DNA of 64,000 nt from an uncultured Candidatus Saccharibacteria bacterium (GTDB lineage: Bacteria > Patescibacteriota > Minisyncoccia > Phycocordibacterales > Phycocordibacteraceae). Positions within the stretch are counted from its first letter, which is position 1; each line of letters opens with the position of its first letter. The position numbers and the translations under genes are program-made. Positions 2,634 through 24,173 of this stretch are shown here, piece by piece. The stretch lies in assembly GCA_964569655.1 (NCBI GenBank), contig CAZMTN010000002.1:70197-134196 (forward strand). Direction: 5' to 3'. The notes beneath the pieces are model-generated. The model did not search any database and was not told where the DNA came from. It was given only the letters and a program-made list of their open reading frames with translations.

Positions 2634-2770
2634 AGATAGGTTCGTTAGGGCTAATCTCCCAACCGAGGTGACGGGTGTGGGTATGTAAAAAGTATAGAAA
2701 ACCAGGGTTTTTGCGCAATAGCCCTGGACAAAGGGGAGAGGATAGGGCGAAATCACGATTTCCTGCAATA

Positions 2771-2806
2771 AAAAGAAAAAGCCCGCTGTAAAGCGAGCTT
2801 TTATAA
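2771..2806 (-). terminator. Putative intrinsic terminator (minus strand) downstream of the 2825..2965 small gene
   Basis: On the minus strand, the hairpin AAGCTCGC-TTTACA-GCGGGCTT is followed by TTTTTCTTTTT. Confidence 0.4.
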
Positions 2807-2824: not shown

Positions 2825-2965
2825 CTAGGTAGCGATGCGGGGCTTGAGCCGCACATCGCGCACCTGCTTCGAGCCTGAGGCGATATCCTTGCGGATCTGG
2901 CTTACCAGATGTTCGCCGAGTGCCAGCAGGTCTTCGATCGAAGCCCTTCGGGTATTAGTACGCAT
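2825..2965 (-). CDS. Small hypothetical protein (46 aa; MRTNTRRASIEDLL...)
   Basis: CAGGAG lies 7 nt upstream of the ATG, after a 9-bp GC hairpin (GGGCGGCGG/CCGCCGCCC at ~2987-3016). Short and unsupported by homology. Confidence 0.25.
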   Translation of the reverse strand: MRTNTRRASIEDLLALGEHLVSQIRKDIASGSKQVRDVRLKPRIAT

Positions 2966-3018: not shown

Positions 3019-3501
3019 TTAGTTGAGGACGTCCTGCACCTTGCGGGACTGATCGCCGGCTTTCACGTCGGAAATGACCGCCGTGAGGATGCGCGACGTC
3101 TCCGGACCCGCCGCCTTGACCAGCTGCTGCAGCTTCTGCAGCTTGGCCTCGGTGGTGACGTCGCCCTTCGGCGCCTGCGGCTTCGCAGACGGGGCGGACG
3201 CGGACGTCTTCGCCTTGCTGCGACGCTTGCGACGCGCCTTCTTGCGCTTCGGCGCCGGGGGACGTTCGCGCTTGGTGCCGTCGGGCGACATGGTGACCAC
3301 CCAGCGACGGCCGGTGGTCTGAGCGACGACGCCCAGGCGGGACAGGTTCTGGAGGATGCGCTTCAGCATGCCCATGCTGCCGACTCCGAGCGTCGTCTTG
3401 AGGAACTTGTAGGAAGCGTCCTGGGATTTCAGGACCGCCTCCTTCGCCTTCCGGATCAGCTCTGCATTCAGGCGCTTCTTGCTATTGCGTTTCTTGGCCA
3501 T
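3019..3501 (-). CDS. Putative DNA-binding protein: FtsK-gamma-like winged helix with a lysine/arginine-rich histone-H1-like tail
   Basis: The segment ELIRKAKEAVLKSQDASYKFLKTTLGVGSMGMLKRILQNLSRLGVV follows the FtsK gamma pattern (A...V.....AS...LQR.L.IGY.RA.R.I..ME..GIV). It is followed by PPAPKRKKARRKRRSKAKTSASAPSAKPQAPK. The start is placed at MAKKR. Confidence 0.5.
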   Translation of the reverse strand: MAKKRNSKKRLNAELIRKAKEAVLKSQDASYKFLKTTLGVGSMGMLKRILQNLSRLGVVAQTTGRRWVVTMSPDGTKRERPPAPKRKKARRKRRSKAKTSASAPSAKPQAPKGDVTTEAKLQKLQQLVKAAGPETSRILTAVISDVKAGDQSRKVQDVLN

Positions 3502-3778
3502 GGGCCCTTTTCCTTTGCTTCTGTTGCTTCGGTTGCTTGGATGGCTCGTCTGACGGTTGCCAGAATCGAGTATTGAAGGCACGCCACCCATTTCTGGTCT
3601 GGCGCAGGTCTGAAAGAAACACGCGGTCCTTTTTGGCCGGGTGCGCTTTCTCTTTCCATACGTCTGGCGAGAGAGAGAAGGTGATTGAACCTTCGACCCC
3701 TACGGCAGTCGCGATGGCATAGTCGCCGCGGTGTCCTTTGAGGACCTCGCTGACAACTCCTTTCAGGCTTTGGGTCAC
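3482..3778 (-). CDS. Hypothetical protein (98 aa)
   Basis: A perfect SD (AGGAGG) lies 7 nt upstream of the ATG, and a near-consensus promoter sits further upstream. It overlaps the next gene by 20 nt. Confidence 0.5.
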   Translation of the reverse strand: MTQSLKGVVSEVLKGHRGDYAIATAVGVEGSITFSLSPDVWKEKAHPAKKDRVFLSDLRQTRNGWRAFNTRFWQPSDEPSKQPKQQKQRKRAHGQETQ

Positions 3779-3855: not shown

Positions 3856-3889
3856 TAAAAACAGGCCCTACGCGTTAGCGCAGGGCCTG
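3853..3889 (-). terminator. Intrinsic terminator of the GHKL-ATPase operon
   Basis: On the minus strand, CAGGCCCT-GCGCTAACGCGT-AGGGCCTG is followed by TTTTTATT. Confidence 0.6.
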
Positions 3890-3917: not shown

Positions 3918-5522
3918 CTAGCTCTTACGCGGCCCGAAGCCCTGGGTGAACGCGGGGCTTTCCTTCAAGATCAGCACGGTCGGATCGATCAGCTTCTTCA
4001 GGAACGGGCGCACATACGTACGCTCCGCTTCCGGCATCAGCTCGATCGTGATCGCATGCGTCGCAATGACTTCCTGCAGACGCATAATGTCGCGATCATT
4101 CCGGTCGCACGCAACCCACTTGGGATGCGTGATGTTGAAGAACAGCGTCACGGTCTTCAGGTCGAACCGCCAGAGGTCTTCGCTGTCCATCTCCACGTGG
4201 GAGAAGTTCAGCCCCTGGTTGCCGCTCCGCACCATGGTCCGCTGCCGGCCGTTCTCCGGTGGAGCAGGCGGCACCGGGCGTACTTTCGGAGTAGGCGGCA
4301 CCGGCTCCGGACGCACTTTGGGAGTGGACGGCTCCGGACGCACCTTCGGAGACGCGTCATTGGAGTCATCGTCCGCATCACTGCGGCCGGCGTCACCATG
4401 ACGGAGGATGCCGGCAAGCTCGGGGTCGCCCTCGAAGAGCTTTTTCAAGTTCTCGAGAGAACGGCGGCCCAGATCCTGCAGGCGCTCTGCGGCGTTCGAG
4501 TTCTGAGCGCGTTCGATATGTTCGCGCCCCGTCTTCTCGAACCATGCGGTCAGCTGTACGCACAGGTCGATCAGCCGGTCATCCTCGGCGAAGGTCTTCC
4601 GGTTCGCTTCCAAGGTGATCTTCGAATGGAGGATCTCTCCTTCGAAGGTTCCCGACAGGAAAGCTTCCTTCACTTCCTTCTCCAAGAAATCCAGGCTCTC
4701 GAGCTGCTTCGCGAACTGCTTGAACGGCACGCGGAAGGCGTTATTTTCAACGCCGACCAGCACCTCGCCTTTGCGCTTGTCGGAACGCGGAACGACGAAC
4801 AGACGGATCGTCGTCGTTCCCATGCCGCTTGCGACCTTCTCTTCCGGCATGCGTTTCCCGGCGAAGTCACTCGCCCGGATCTGCACCGCCTCGAGCAAAG
4901 CCCCCGTCGCGTCGATCTCGTCGACCCACACGACCGCCTTCCGCTCGCGCATCGCAACCGCGAAGTTCGAGAGGATTTCCTGGCGCAGCTCGGCCACATC
5001 GAACCGGCCGATCTGACGATCGTCCGTGTACTTGATGATGCGAAGCTCGGACATCCATTGCTGGACGCCGTGCTCCTGGCCTTTCTTGGGAATGAGCACG
5101 TCCCGCACCACCTTCTCGAACGGCACTTCCACGTCGGACATCTTCTTGATGTCCTCGCAGATGAACCGCCACCGCCATACCTGCTTTTCCCCCTTCTCGA
5201 GGGCGCAGGTGGTGAAGGTGAACTCCCGGCACTTGCCGAGCGCCGCGATAAGGCCGATGCCGAACTGGCCCAGCTTGTCGCGGCTCTTGGTGGAGTGGCA
5301 CACGCTCTGCAGCGCGTTCTCGAACTTGGCATGCGTAACGCCCGAGCCGTTGTCGCGGATGAAGATCTCACGCTTCTTGCGGTTAATCTCGATCCCGATG
5401 ACGGTGGCGCCGGCATCAAGCCCGTTCTGGACCGCCTCTTTCACGACCTGCAAAAGACGCGGGTACTGTTGGGCAGCGAGGCCGAGTGCCGCGCCAGCCA
5501 TTAACCTGACTTTCGATCCCAT
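3918..5522 (-). CDS. GHKL (Bergerat-fold) family ATPase, MORC / HATPase_c_3-like, 534 aa, with a proline-rich repeat linker and an uncharacterised C-terminal domain
   Basis: N-box VVKEAVQNGLDAGAT, G1 box IRDNGSGV and G2 box GQFGIGL are all present. PKVRPEP is repeated three times. There is no kinase H-box or receiver domain. Confidence 0.7.
   Translation of the reverse strand: MGSKVRLMAGAALGLAAQQYPRLLQVVKEAVQNGLDAGATVIGIEINRKKREIFIRDNGSGVTHAKFENALQSVCHSTKSRDKLGQFGIGLIAALGKCREFTFTTCALEKGEKQVWRWRFICEDIKKMSDVEVPFEKVVRDVLIPKKGQEHGVQQWMSELRIIKYTDDRQIGRFDVAELRQEILSNFAVAMRERKAVVWVDEIDATGALLEAVQIRASDFAGKRMPEEKVASGMGTTTIRLFVVPRSDKRKGEVLVGVENNAFRVPFKQFAKQLESLDFLEKEVKEAFLSGTFEGEILHSKITLEANRKTFAEDDRLIDLCVQLTAWFEKTGREHIERAQNSNAAERLQDLGRRSLENLKKLFEGDPELAGILRHGDAGRSDADDDSNDASPKVRPEPSTPKVRPEPVPPTPKVRPVPPAPPENGRQRTMVRSGNQGLNFSHVEMDSEDLWRFDLKTVTLFFNITHPKWVACDRNDRDIMRLQEVIATHAITIELMPEAERTYVRPFLKKLIDPTVLILKESPAFTQGFGPRKS
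4255..4350. repeat. Imperfect tandem DNA repeat (~27-nt unit, 3 copies) encoding the PKVRPEP repeats
   Basis: The units ggcaccgggcgtactttcggagtaggc, ggcaccggctccggacgcactttgggagtggac and ggctccggacgcaccttcggagacgcg are visible in the sequence. Confidence 0.6.
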
Positions 5523-5556
5523 GTTGGGTCTCTCCTGCTAATGCTATAGGGGATGA

Positions 5557-6195
5557 TTACAGATTGTTACGCGCTCGTTCGCCGCACAGGCGCGCGAGCG
5601 AGTTCTTCAGGTTGAAGATGCCGTCGCCGCCGGACATTTTGCGGATCTCGTCGCGATCGTCAGCGGTAAACGCATCGGATAGCACGAGCTCCACGAGCGG
5701 AGCGAGGGCACTGATTTGCGCGACGAGTGATTGCTTCACCACGGTCGCGCTCTTCACTACAGGCAGCACATCCGCCTGAAGCTTCATTTCCGGCAAGTTC
5801 GCGGCCAATCGATCGAAGATTTGCATCTTTTCCTCGAGAGGCCGAACCTTGCCATGCAGGACCACGAGGGCCTGATGGTCTTGCGTATAGCCAACAGCGC
5901 TGTTGATTGCGCTGAGGGTCGTACGACCATCCGCGACCGCCCGACGAAGAGTCCGGACGGAAGGATGGATCATCGTCGGCACGTCGGATAACGTATAGCC
6001 GGCACTTTCGAGGAAACATTGCAGCTGGATCAGATTCGTTCCAGTCGGCAATGTGTCCTTCTTGAACCACCGCGACACGGTTGTGTCGAAGCTGTTCGGG
6101 TATTTCTCCCGGAAGGCAGCGACGGCTGCTCCGACAGTTGCCTTGCTTGAGACGAAGTGCCTCACGCAGGCGGCGGTTGTCCCTTTGAAGTTCAT
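5557..6195 (-). CDS. Hypothetical protein (212 aa), second gene of the GHKL operon; possibly helix-turn-helix-containing
   Basis: Co-oriented with the flanking genes, 35 nt upstream of the ATPase and 2 nt downstream of the 86-aa gene. No recognisable motif. Confidence 0.55.
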   Translation of the reverse strand: MNFKGTTAACVRHFVSSKATVGAAVAAFREKYPNSFDTTVSRWFKKDTLPTGTNLIQLQCFLESAGYTLSDVPTMIHPSVRTLRRAVADGRTTLSAINSAVGYTQDHQALVVLHGKVRPLEEKMQIFDRLAANLPEMKLQADVLPVVKSATVVKQSLVAQISALAPLVELVLSDAFTADDRDEIRKMSGGDGIFNLKNSLARLCGERARNNL

Positions 6196-6197
6196 GG

Positions 6198-6458
6198 TCA
6201 GCTCCTTGCTGAAACAGAGATGATTGACAGTTCTTGCGCACGCCAGCCTTTGTCGTGCTTCACGATTTCGGAAAGATAGACGATTTGTCCAGTCTCGATA
6301 GCCTTGTGATCTTCCTTCTTGCGGACAGTGATCGAGGTGTCGACGGTAAGGTCGAACAGCTCAGCATCAGCCTCCGAAAGGGGATAGGTCACGAAGTACC
6401 CAGGTGGGTCGACGATCTTTGCGATTCGAGCACGAAGAAGTCTCTCTTTCGTACTCAT
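6198..6458 (-). CDS. Hypothetical small protein (86 aa), first gene of the GHKL operon
   Basis: AAAGGAG lies 7 nt upstream of the ATG, directly downstream of a perfect consensus promoter. Its GC content is lower than the surroundings. Confidence 0.55.
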   Translation of the reverse strand: MSTKERLLRARIAKIVDPPGYFVTYPLSEADAELFDLTVDTSITVRKKEDHKAIETGQIVYLSEIVKHDKGWRAQELSIISVSARS

Positions 6459-6475
6459 TTCTACTCCTTTCTACT

Positions 6476-6545
6476 ATTGAGCTTTCAAAAGACGCTGCCC
6501 CGACATGGGGCAGACTGTCTATCATTATAATCAATATGTATACAA
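6476..6545 (-). promoter_or_regulatory. Perfect sigma70 consensus promoter (TTGACA-17 nt-TATAAT) with a 5'-leader hairpin plus U-tract
   Basis: The minus strand reads TTGACAtttgtatacatattgatTATAATgatagacagtCTGCCCCATGTCGGGGCAGcgtcttttg, then AAAGGAG and ATG. The hairpin can also terminate rny read-through. Confidence 0.65.
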
Positions 6546-6557
6546 ATGTCAAGTCCT

Positions 6558-8087
6558 CTAGCGAGCGAACTCTACCACGCGGTTCTCGCGGATCATGTTC
6601 ACCTTGATCTCGCCCGGATACTTGAGCTCGTCCTGGATGCGCTCCGCGATCTCGCGGGCCATCTTGTGCATGGCGAGGTCCGAGACCTTGCCCGGATTGA
6701 TGAACACGCGGATCTCGCGGCCCGCCTGGATGGCGTACGCCTTCTCGACGCCCTCGAAGGAGGACGCGATGCGTTCGAGGTCCGAGAGGCGCTCGAGGTA
6801 GCGCTCGACGGTGTCGCGGCGCGCGCCCGGGCGTCCGCCTGAGATAGCGTCCGCGGTCTGCACGATGACCGACTCCGGCGTCTCGTACGGGTATTCCTCG
6901 TGATGGGACTGCATCGCGTGGATGACGCGGACATCGATGCCGAACTTCTCGAGGATGCGGCGGCCGATCTCCACGTGGGTTCCGGATACTTCATGATCCA
7001 CGGCCTTGCCGATGTCATGGAGGAGGGCGCCGGCGCGGGCGACGTCCGCATCCGCGCCGAGCTCGGTCGCGAGCATGCCGGCGATGTGCGCCATCTCCAC
7101 CGAATGCTGGAGCACGTTCTGGCCGTAGCTGGTACGGAAATTGAGGCGGCCGAGGAGCGCGATGAGCTTCGGGTCGAGCCCGACGACCCCCGCCTCGTAG
7201 CAGGCTTCTTCGCCCTTCTGCTTGATGAGGTCGTTCATCTCCTTCTTCGTCTTCTCGATGATCTCCTCGATCTTTGCCGGCTGGATGCGGCCGTCCGCGA
7301 TGAGCTTCTCGAGCGCTACCTTCGCCACATGGCGGCGCAGCGGATCGAAGGAGGAGAGAGTGATCTTGTCCGGGACGTCGTCGATGAGGACGTCGACGCC
7401 CGTCGCGCGCTCGAAGGCCTTGATGTTGCGGCCTTCCTTTCCGATGATCTTTCCTTTGACCTCTTCGGACGGGATGGTAACCGAGAGGGTAGTGACCTCC
7501 GCGTTCACCGCGTTCCCGAGGCGATGGATGACGGCGGTCAGGATATTGCGGGCCTTCTCCTCGAAGCGCTCGCGGCCGGTAGCCTCGAGCTTCTGGATGC
7601 GGGTGAGGATGGCTTCCTCATGCGCCTTCTCGATGTCCTGCATGAGCGCGTCCTTTGCAGCAGCCTCTGAGAGACGGCCTACCTTCGCAAGCTCCGCGCG
7701 GCGTTCCTTCGCGAGCTCCTCGGCTTCCTTCTTCATGCGGCCGGCCTCGTTCTCCCGGGCCTTTACATCATCCCCGCGCTGCACGAGGCTGCGCTCGCGC
7801 TCGTCGAGGAATTCCTCCTTCTTCGCGAGGCGCTCTTCGAGCTTCCCGAGCTTCTCTACGCGCTCTTCGATAGGGGCAAGCTGCTCCGCCTCGATCTCTT
7901 CCGCCTTAGCCTGCGCCTCCTGGAGGAGCTTGTTCGCGCGCTCCTTCGCCTCGAGCATCTTCTGCTTGATCTCGATTTCCAAAGACCCGCGCTGGCCGAG
8001 CGCGATAAGAAGACGGAGCACGTATCCGAGCGCGATGCCGGCAACGCCGGACACCGCAAGCAAGATGAGTACCAGTTTGATTGACAT
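6558..8087 (-). CDS. rny: Ribonuclease Y
   Basis: N-terminal transmembrane segment, coiled coil, KH domain (IGKEGRNIKAFERATGV) and HD domain (LLHDIGKAVDHE...H). The overall architecture is that of RNase Y. Confidence 0.9.
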   Translation of the reverse strand: MSIKLVLILLAVSGVAGIALGYVLRLLIALGQRGSLEIEIKQKMLEAKERANKLLQEAQAKAEEIEAEQLAPIEERVEKLGKLEERLAKKEEFLDERERSLVQRGDDVKARENEAGRMKKEAEELAKERRAELAKVGRLSEAAAKDALMQDIEKAHEEAILTRIQKLEATGRERFEEKARNILTAVIHRLGNAVNAEVTTLSVTIPSEEVKGKIIGKEGRNIKAFERATGVDVLIDDVPDKITLSSFDPLRRHVAKVALEKLIADGRIQPAKIEEIIEKTKKEMNDLIKQKGEEACYEAGVVGLDPKLIALLGRLNFRTSYGQNVLQHSVEMAHIAGMLATELGADADVARAGALLHDIGKAVDHEVSGTHVEIGRRILEKFGIDVRVIHAMQSHHEEYPYETPESVIVQTADAISGGRPGARRDTVERYLERLSDLERIASSFEGVEKAYAIQAGREIRVFINPGKVSDLAMHKMAREIAERIQDELKYPGEIKVNMIRENRVVEFAR

Positions 8088-8233: not shown

Positions 8234-8262
8234 TTGACACTGATCTGTTTTTTATAGTATAA
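8234..8262 (+). promoter_or_regulatory. Putative promoter (TTGACA ... TATAGT/TATAAA region)
   Basis: A TTGACA hexamer is followed at 15-18 nt by AT-rich -10 candidates. It lies upstream of a small ORF. Confidence 0.3.
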
Positions 8263-8328
8263 ATTCCATAGACGAATTGCTCCCACGACCGCAGGGTGAT
8301 GCGGCCTGTTCCCTTCAGGGAGGAACGG

Positions 8329-8523
8329 ATGCGAACTTCGCTTAAGCTCGTCTACGCACTGCTGATGGCTATCATGCCTCCAATGAAAAAACAAAAGGAC
8401 TTCATTGTGGTGTTGGTGACCATCGCCCTCGTACTTCCGCTCGTAACCATTGCGATCGTCACGACACTTCCGTGCGGAACGTCAGGACAGCAAGCGTGCC
8501 AAGAACAGACCGTCGCCCGCTGA
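8329..8523 (+). CDS. Small hypothetical membrane protein (64 aa)
   Basis: GGGAGG lies 5 nt upstream of the ATG. There is one hydrophobic helix (FIVVLVTIALVLPLVTIAIV), and the gene is followed by a terminator. Confidence 0.3.
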   Translation: MRTSLKLVYALLMAIMPPMKKQKDFIVVLVTIALVLPLVTIAIVTTLPCGTSGQQACQEQTVAR

Positions 8524-8529
8524 AATGCA

Positions 8530-8568
8530 AAAGGCGCCCGAGACAACCCGGGCGCCTTTTTTCTTTTG
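8530..8568. terminator. Bidirectional intrinsic terminator (clpP 3' end)
   Basis: AAAGGCGCCCG-AGACAAC-CGGGCGCCTTTTTTCTTTTG, with a T-tract on both strands. Confidence 0.6.
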
Positions 8569-23961: not shown

Positions 23962-24173
23962 GAGGCTAGACTAGCAGAAACAGTCCTGTTTGTCCAGTTT
24001 TATAGACATAGTATGTGGATAAAAATACCCTTTATTTACTTTATATTATAGCCCTTGTTAGGTTTATGAAATACTAAAATATACTGTCAATGGTTCTAGG
24101 CGTATAGTTATTGCAGATCAAGCGCACATTGATAGGGCATCCCGCCCATCAAACCAACCTGAGGAGAAGTATC

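Follow-up and report, generated by a model that had tools for sequence, protein, structure and literature searches.

A probable native sigma70-type promoter and 5' leader of a mobile GHKL-ATPase cassette inserted between rny and hup in a Patescibacterium

Promoters with consensus sigma70/sigmaA hexamers are represented by strong phage, rRNA and synthetic promoters, and in Escherichia coli promoter escape can become the limiting step for those with a perfect consensus. That a 5'-terminal stem-loop can stabilise mRNA is established, a result ascribed to Emory, Bouvet & Belasco (1992) and to Bouvet & Belasco (1992). Both of these papers are cited in PMC3997798. Cold-shock proteins have been linked to antitermination (PMC1636342), and the preferred sequence of Bacillus subtilis CspB is 5'-GTCTTTG/T-3' (PMC1904285). 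Among regulators of immune operons, the abstract of PMC13373217 presents CapK/CapS as a SpoIIAB-like small kinase with a STAS-domain DNA-binding repressor. Literature searches on promoters or transcription start sites of Patescibacteria found nothing relevant.

The stretch of DNA analysed here (64,000 nucleotides, hereafter the window) belonged to a high-GC Paceibacteria-like Patescibacterium. A promoter named P1 was located on its minus strand directly after rny. P1 is probably the native promoter, of sigma70 type, of a mobile cassette inserted between rny and hup, and the RNA that follows it would be the 5' leader of that cassette, with a 5'-protective hairpin and a sequence-specific leader motif.

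The rny gene (RNase Y, 6558-8087 (-)) was identified by TIGR03319 RNase_Y (570 bits) and by the Pfam domains RNase_Y_N, KH_1 and HD. Its stop codon TAG (6560-6558) was followed by AGGAC, so that 5 nt separated the stop codon from the -35 hexamer of P1. Among 80 rny loci collected from GTDB genomes, every one (80/80) came from Patescibacteria (Paceibacteria or Kaiserbacteria-like), with RNase Y identities of 71-84%, and clpP-rny-hup was the common gene order. Comparison of these relatives points to clpP-rny-hup as the ancestral arrangement, with the inserts that separate rny from hup varying and the gap ranging from about 100 nt up to several kb.

In the window, the rny-hup interval held about 3.8 kb of accessory DNA (6557 to about 2757) in two modules. 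The first comprised P1, p86, p212, a GHKL ATPase gene and a strong terminator (3889-3862), and the second comprised promoter P2, p98, p160, a 46-aa ORF and, at 2802-2777, a terminator. The insertion would have included the cassette and this second small module. The accessory status of this DNA follows from the window hup gene, which kept the conserved upstream region of the clade. By comparison with about 60 relatives, this region (2691-2753 (-)) consisted of a GATTTCGCCCTATCC box and the hup promoter TTGCGC-16-TATACT (2718-2691), and being intact it marked the far edge of the insertion. The last terminator of the inserted segment (2777-2802 (-), d=+28 on the d'Aubenton-Carafa scale) is possibly the displaced ancestral rny terminator.

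The region upstream of hup (HU) was itself strongly conserved throughout the clade, at 2691-2753 (-) of the window and, downstream of rny, at about 60 of the loci L003-L082. It was composed of a (G/A)ATTTCGCGCTATCCAC box, then CTATTGCGTAAAATGGCGCATTTCCTATACTTT (TTGCGT-16-TATACT), a conserved structured leader and the hup ATG.

The first cassette gene, p86 (6198-6458 (-)), encoded a small beta-barrel protein with a predicted OB fold, closest to cold-shock domains (CSD); structure prediction, run on database homologs, modelled a five-stranded CSD-type barrel. No Pfam match, and so no membership of Pfam CSD with RNP1 and RNP2, was obtained in 12 members of the family, and p86 gave no match to PDB sequences at E<=10. 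Together with p98, p86 formed one family of about 100 small proteins without a Pfam match from Patescibacteria genomes and metagenomes. The second gene, p212 (5557-6195 (-)), had an N-terminal Cro/C2-type HTH, which was found by profile search against PDB (3op9, E=5.5e-4; P22 C2 repressor, E=2.5e-3), and several family members matched HTH_3, HTH_23 and HTH_31. Antitermination of the lambda-Q kind was considered for p212 and rejected, its profile reaching only E=0.7 against a Q protein. The third gene (3918-5522 (-)) encoded a 534-aa GHKL ATPase (HATPase_c_3, Pfam PF13589, E=1e-16), and a strong intrinsic terminator of 12 pairs (3862-3889 (-), d=+47) ended the P1 operon. The CapK/CapS type of regulator, as presented in the abstract of PMC13373217, was also rejected, for the cassette had a HATPase_c_3 protein of 534 aa and a Cro/C2-type HTH instead. 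In PADLOC only weak ATPase-domain matches were obtained (TmtA 6.8e-9, MzaB 1e-4), with none for p86 or p212. The cassette is a candidate for a defence or conflict system not described so far. A phage or plasmid origin was not supported, as IMG/VR and INPHARED contained no relatives and PLSDB gave distant ATPase-domain matches only.

Apart from the window, the exact cassette proteins were present on a single assembly, which came from the same organism. Six further contig sets and 33 metagenome loci contained homologs of the GHKL protein, full-length at 28 of the metagenome loci, and more than 40 loci had a full-length homolog with a p212-like gene upstream. The p212-like gene was almost always directly upstream of the GHKL gene, and a p86-like gene came first in 15 lineages. 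Neighbouring genes varied from locus to locus (e.g. purH, infB-rbfA, prs and NUDIX, msrB), and the rny-hup slot was shared only by locus L011. Judged by these comparisons, the cassette appears to be mobile and to carry its own promoter. The set p86 (OB)-p212 (HTH)-GHKL ATPase was recurrent in Patescibacteria, occurring as a mobile gene set in the window (3918-6458 (-)) and at L011, L083-L119 and L125-L130. As a set it lacked a counterpart in PADLOC, in Pfam for p86 and p212, and among phages and plasmids.

The hexamers of P1 were read directly on the minus strand, TTGACA at 6552-6547 and TATAAT at 6529-6524, as the first-pass annotation had described. They were separated by an AT-rich spacer of 17 nt (6530-6546) containing the palindrome TGTATACA (6537-6544). 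By standard sigma70 geometry, 6-8 nt after the -10 hexamer, transcription would start at A6518, C6517 or A6516. Downstream of TATAAT the leader contained, in this order, GATAGACAGT, the hairpin CTGCCCC-ATGTC-GGGGCAG, CGTCTTTTG, GAAAGCTCAATAGTAG, the Shine-Dalgarno sequence (SD) AAAGGAG (6464-6470 (-)) and the p86 start codon ATG (6458-6456 (-)), with 66 nt from the -10 hexamer to the ATG and P1 about 60 nt upstream of the SD-ATG. The hairpin some 10 nt after TATAAT, followed by GTCTTTTG, AAAGGAG and ATG, had likewise been described before and was found in the sequence. The range of 6476-6545 originally quoted for these features clipped the -35 hexamer and omitted the SD and the ATG; the features themselves stood, and the substance of the description was unaffected.

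P1 was the sole 12/12 consensus match on both strands of the 64 kb, and no such match arose in 200 first-order Markov simulations, in keeping with the rarity that had been claimed for it. At a threshold of at least 11/12 the window had 3 matches against 0.1 expected, and at least 10/12 was reached by 7 against 2.5 expected. In 869 kb of related genomes two 12/12 matches were found, both with a 16-nt spacer, and 14 matches of at least 11/12. A perfect match is therefore rare, yet near-consensus promoters belong to the repertoire of the clade, given these 14 matches.

For 31 lineages of the cassette, 15 with p86 first and 16 with p212 first, the promoter and the leader were inspected. All but L105 (30/31) had a -35 of the TTGAC(A/T/C/G) type and, after a spacer of 16-18 nt, a hexamer resembling a -10, in most cases TAnnnN; TTGATA in L118 and TAGACA in L096 were the exceptions at -35. 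These promoters were often placed right after the terminator of the preceding gene and mostly matched 9-11 of 12 positions, P1 of the window being the best match. It would be highly improbable that the P1 hexamers are a coincidental, non-functional match and that the operon owes its expression to rny read-through. The site does lie just 5 nt past a gene end, which is in favour of such a chance match, but none of the 200 simulations produced one, and, except in L105, the -35/-10 pair recurred at the same place before the first gene of homologous cassettes in unrelated contexts. With hexamers close to TTGACA/TATAAT, a spacer within 16-18 nt, a leader-sized distance to the downstream gene and an equivalent site kept in homologous operons, P1 is very probably a genuine sigma70-type promoter of the downstream GHKL operon, which agrees with its original assignment.

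The hexamers of P1 were identical to those of consensus sigma70/sigmaA promoters and the spacing was optimal. P1 differed from such promoters in the absence of an UP element, its upstream DNA being GC-rich rny coding sequence, and of an extended -10 TG, and in its host, a Patescibacterium. The very high, conditionally gated expression proposed earlier goes too far, since hexamer identity alone is insufficient for it, and the Cro/C2-like HTH protein encoded in the cassette could, to judge from its sequence, repress P1. The palindrome TGTATACA was present twice in the window. An operator in the spacer was considered and found unsupported, because neither TGTATACA of P1 nor ATATAC-N6-GTATAT of P2 was conserved in homologous promoters.

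Further promoters were seen in the window. P2 (3827-3855 (-)), a near-consensus promoter TTGACA-17-TATACT, would drive p98 (3482-3778 (-)), which is a paralog of p86, p160 (3019-3501 (-)) and the 46-aa ORF (2825-2965 (-)). It came directly after the GHKL terminator, its spacer carried the inverted repeat ATATAC-N6-GTATAT (3850-3833), and its leader started with GCUCCU, complementary to its own SD AGGAGC. Genes like p160 also followed the GHKL gene in L083, L084 and L106. P3 (TTGACA-18-TATAAA, 8234-8263 (+)) was located between clpP and rny on the opposite strand, where it would drive a predicted small membrane protein of 64 aa (ORF 8329-8523) ending in a strong terminator (8529-8560). The P3 unit was another small accessory insert, most relatives having only about 150-200 nt at this place; its leader contained GUUCCCUUCAGGGAGGAAC, which can mask the SD. 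In addition, an AT-rich intergenic region at 24000-24100 (-) had TTGACA-16-CATAAA and a separate GGGCTATAAT and was promoter-like.

The leader hairpin (6490-6520 (-)) had a GC-rich core stem of 7 bp, CTGCCCC/GGGGCAG (6513-6495), with the 5-nt loop ATGTC, placed 10 nt after the -10 hexamer and 45 nt after the rny stop. An extended stem AGAC.G.CTGCCCC / GGGGCAG.C.GTCT (6520-6490) was possible, and the window stem started 3-10 nt after the -10 hexamer. The P1 leader folded at -20.4 kcal/mol (z = -2.7 against shuffles), and the 5' hairpin at -17.7 kcal/mol (p=0.007 against shuffles). Among the p86-type leaders, 14/15 had a 5'-proximal hairpin starting 0-13 nt after the -10 hexamer, which would put it at or close to the beginning of the transcript; L129 had none. 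The stems varied by lineage: CUGCCCC/GGGGCAG, CUUUGCCA/UGGCAGGG, CGCCA/UGGCG, GGAAC/GUUCC and CUUAGAGAA/UUCUGUAAG. MAFFT yielded no common register for this first hairpin, so that covariation could not be used and stability was tested sequence by sequence. In four of the 15 leaders the hairpin was more stable than shuffles (window p=.007, L093.008, L011.033, L125.046), and the combined Fisher p=.0017 is optimistic, because these lineages cannot be counted as independent. In most of the remaining leaders, L118, L083 and L100 among them, stability was not above that of shuffles.

Transcription most likely starts at 6516-6518, and the mRNA would then begin with the 7-bp GC hairpin, in its core or extended form; the first-pass annotation had likewise put the hairpin at the extreme 5' end. 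Its most plausible role there would be to protect the mRNA, as a stem-loop at the 5' terminus, from 5'-end-dependent decay. The cassette leader resembled the 5' stabilisers of E. coli ompA and papA and of B. subtilis ermC and aprE in having a stable hairpin, predicted at 0-5 nt from the 5' end of the transcript, in conserving the position of the hairpin but not its sequence, and in a host that encodes RNase Y. Unlike those stabilisers, the P1 hairpin adjoined a conserved sequence motif; moreover, the hairpin was missing from L129 and not above chance in most other leaders, and its distance from the 5' end depends on a start site placed by geometry.

The ATG of the hairpin loop (6506-6504) opened a 10-codon ORF, MSGQRLLKAQ*, ending at 6476-6474, 3 nt before the SD (window 6474-6506 (-)), and short ORFs also began in the equivalent loop of L011 and L095, none with an SD and with no conservation of the peptide. 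A leader peptide was rejected on these grounds: the loop ATG lacked an SD, the peptides were unrelated, and the frequency of ATG in leaders was not above chance.

It had been proposed that the hairpin sits where rny transcripts from upstream should terminate. A simple consensus scan did list the P1 hairpin as terminator-like, and it was the only such structure between the rny stop and the cassette. The d'Aubenton-Carafa discriminant, positive for intrinsic terminators, was d = -6.4 for P1 (best register a 29-nt hairpin, -16.1 kcal/mol, nT 3.13), so the hairpin did not qualify as an intrinsic terminator. All seven comparison terminators of the window scored above zero: the range was +9.5 to +52, and six fell within +28 to +52. 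The high-scoring ones had stems of 7-12 bp and uninterrupted U-runs. Leader hairpins of homologous cassettes were at d -18 to -70, and the rny terminators of relatives at -6 to +15. The window hairpin is therefore a borderline terminator, and those of the family are not terminators.

Should the hairpin be primarily the intrinsic terminator of rny, the promoter would merely lie between the rny stop and that terminator. Besides the scan result and the lack of any other terminator-like structure there, this is favoured by the tail UUUUGAAAG that the extended stem would provide, by a d of -6.4 close to that of the presumed rny terminator of relative L080 (-6.1), and by a stability far above that of homologous leader hairpins. 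Against it, the hairpin was not conserved downstream of rny in relatives, whose rny terminators were unrelated or absent, and about 19/80 of them had no terminator between rny and the hup promoter; a terminator here is therefore not required by the clade. The arrangement at other cassettes weighs more directly on the question. In L011 rny had its own canonical strong terminator, followed by a minus-strand gene and only then by the cassette, which began with TTGACC-17-TACAGA, the hairpin CTTTGCCA-ATGG-TGGCAGGG, GTTCTTTG, AAAGAGGAA and the ATG of the p86 homolog. In L083 the gene upstream of the cassette was divergent, and the layout was the same with yet another stem. Both loci thus kept the order of hairpin, pyrimidine motif and GAAAG-SD with different stem sequences, and since no upstream gene can use the hairpin at either, it belongs to the cassette leader. 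Together with the terminator at 2777-2802, which could be the displaced ancestral one, this makes it unlikely that the hairpin primarily serves rny; it travels with the cassette (L011, L083) rather than with rny.

A secondary role is nevertheless likely. Because the cassette begins 5 nt past the rny stop, the hairpin is the only element able to curb read-through from rny, and in the window it would be a terminator for rny that is at best leaky. The window hairpin was far more stable and terminator-like than any homologous leader hairpin, and this greater stability could reflect a real terminator role acquired here. The base of the extended stem brings the U-run next to the stem. Since a start at 6516-6518 would drop part of that base, RNAs from P1 should terminate even less than read-through RNAs from rny.

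The sequence TTGAC(A/G) was also seen 3-8 nt past the rny stop in 8 relatives (L018, L021, L022, L024, L031, L045, L050 and L080), at the same place as the -35 hexamer of the window. There the rny terminator hairpin came about 7-10 nt later, and its loop, exactly 17 nt downstream, read CCTAAT, TCTAGT or TCCAAT, none of which has A at position 2. Candidate readings of this observation are shared ancestry, a binding site and a weak promoter that overlaps the terminator.

The same discriminant bears on the suggestion that the hairpin is a promoter-proximal attenuator, in which P1 would be strong, most transcripts would stop after about 30 nt, and a factor would relieve the block on demand. A consensus promoter, a GC hairpin and a U-rich tail do occur here together, and the first product has a cold-shock-domain-like predicted fold, cold-shock proteins having been implicated in antitermination (PMC1636342). 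As in Rho-independent terminators and attenuators, the leader had a GC-rich stem, a 5-nt loop and a U-rich stretch downstream. It departed from them in an interrupted U-run and a d of -6.4 under the terminator threshold, and it had no antiterminator structure, leader peptide or riboswitch aptamer; the homologs lost all terminator character (-18 to -70) yet kept the motif. In most homologs the motif either was apart from the hairpin or overlapped the 3' arm, and neither placement is compatible with a terminator tail. Folding analyses of the leader revealed no alternative, mutually exclusive folds, and Rfam gave no match at the gathering threshold in the 64 kb and only noise (E>=5) in 6380-6620. 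With a start at 6516-6518, moreover, the stem base next to the U-run would be largely missing from P1 transcripts. An attenuator is accordingly improbable in the light of these scores, and the hairpin is better read as a 5'-terminal stem-loop.

What had been called a U-tract proved to be a conserved motif, with a roughly constant spacing to the start codon, and not a terminator tail. In the window it read GTCTTTTG (6486-6493 (-)), within CGTCTTTTG, which spans 6494-6486 directly after the hairpin core; the family consensus, from 11 aligned leaders, was GUYYYUUG. The pattern GT[CT][CT][CT]TTG was present in 11/15 p86-first leaders, where it lay 16-27 nt before the ATG, and in 0/16 of the cassettes without p86, where p212 comes first (Fisher p = 1.6e-5). 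Its background rate was 1.9e-4 per nt, which amounts to about 0.012 per leader. The motif was defined after the data had been seen, so its p-values are optimistic; the effect is large despite this post hoc definition. In the MAFFT alignment of the 11 leaders, the G, T, TT and G of the motif and the start codon were the only invariant columns. In a leader context the motif occurred once in the 64-kb window, and in 869 kb of relatives it was found at three genuine 5' UTRs, one of which was the L011 cassette. In the proposed arrangement, GUCUUUUG would be the window copy of a conserved single-stranded GUYYYUUG leader motif that belongs to the p86 gene and is recognised as sequence by a protein or the ribosome, instead of being the U-tail of a terminator.

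The motif, as GTTCCTTG/GTTCTTTG, was also observed just upstream of the SD in two unrelated small genes of relatives, L060 6070-6342 (-) (90 aa) and L066 920-1336 (-) (138 aa). Both were behind strong promoters, with TATAAT in L060 and TTGACA-16-TATTAT in L066, which hints at a use of the motif beyond the cassette. At L125 (3501-3836), the database call of the p86 homolog (111 aa) started inside the promoter of the homolog itself, TTGACT-16-TATGGT. Translation probably begins instead at the ATG near 3557, which has the GGAAC/GUUCC hairpin, the motif and an SD in front of it.

The motif could also be read as an anti-SD element that pairs with AAAGGAG/AGAGGAA, hairpin 1 competing with this pairing in a two-state translational switch. 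Minimum free energy folds of L011, L095 and L083 did pair the motif with the SD in a stem, which in L011 had 8 bp and a GAAA loop, motif:SD was the only consensus helix returned by RNAalifold, and in leaders of the L092 type the motif overlapped the 3' arm of hairpin 1, but the quantitative comparisons did not bear the pairing out. Accessibility of the SD was not below that of shuffled leaders, and the window SD was more open (0.85 vs 0.43). Covariation did not exceed what composition gives, 83.6% of cells pairing vs 82.8% in shuffles (239/500), slid registers paired almost as well, and the invariant flanking Gs are left unexplained by SD pairing. An anti-SD repression hairpin thus found no support in the accessibility shuffles or in pair counting on the aligned leaders, and a switch of this kind is quite unlikely; recognition of GUYYYUUG as sequence is the preferred reading.

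A candidate for such recognition is p86 itself. As in cold-shock genes with autoregulated 5' UTRs, the first gene is predicted to encode a CSD-like OB fold and its leader carries a motif preferred by CspB, the window copy GTCTTTTG being an exact match to the heptamer preference of that protein. By analogy, this match suggests that p86 may bind its own leader, but it stays a lead, since p86 does not belong to the CSD proteins at the level of sequence. That p86, from a previously undescribed OB-fold family, binds GUYYYUUG by the 5' hairpin and thereby sets cassette expression, through autoregulation of translation or stability or through melting of the hairpin, is put forward tentatively and has a rather low likelihood. 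If true, a strong promoter would be combined with a protein-based post-transcriptional governor in an uncharacterised GHKL system of Patescibacteria.

As a kind, the feature is ordinary, a native promoter and leader of a horizontally acquired operon, and its detail is modestly new, namely a cassette-specific leader motif tied to the gene of an uncharacterised OB-fold protein. It offers a clean and comparatively validated example of promoter architecture in Patescibacteria, and a warning against a common misreading, for what looks like a hairpin with its U-tract behind a gene can belong to the leader of the operon that follows, one acquired horizontally. The motif GUYYYUUG, together with a CSD-like first gene, provides a testable handle on the control of an uncharacterised GHKL-ATPase system. 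In these tiny genomes, as the site shows, mobile accessory cassettes come with near-consensus promoters, 5' hairpins and terminators of their own.
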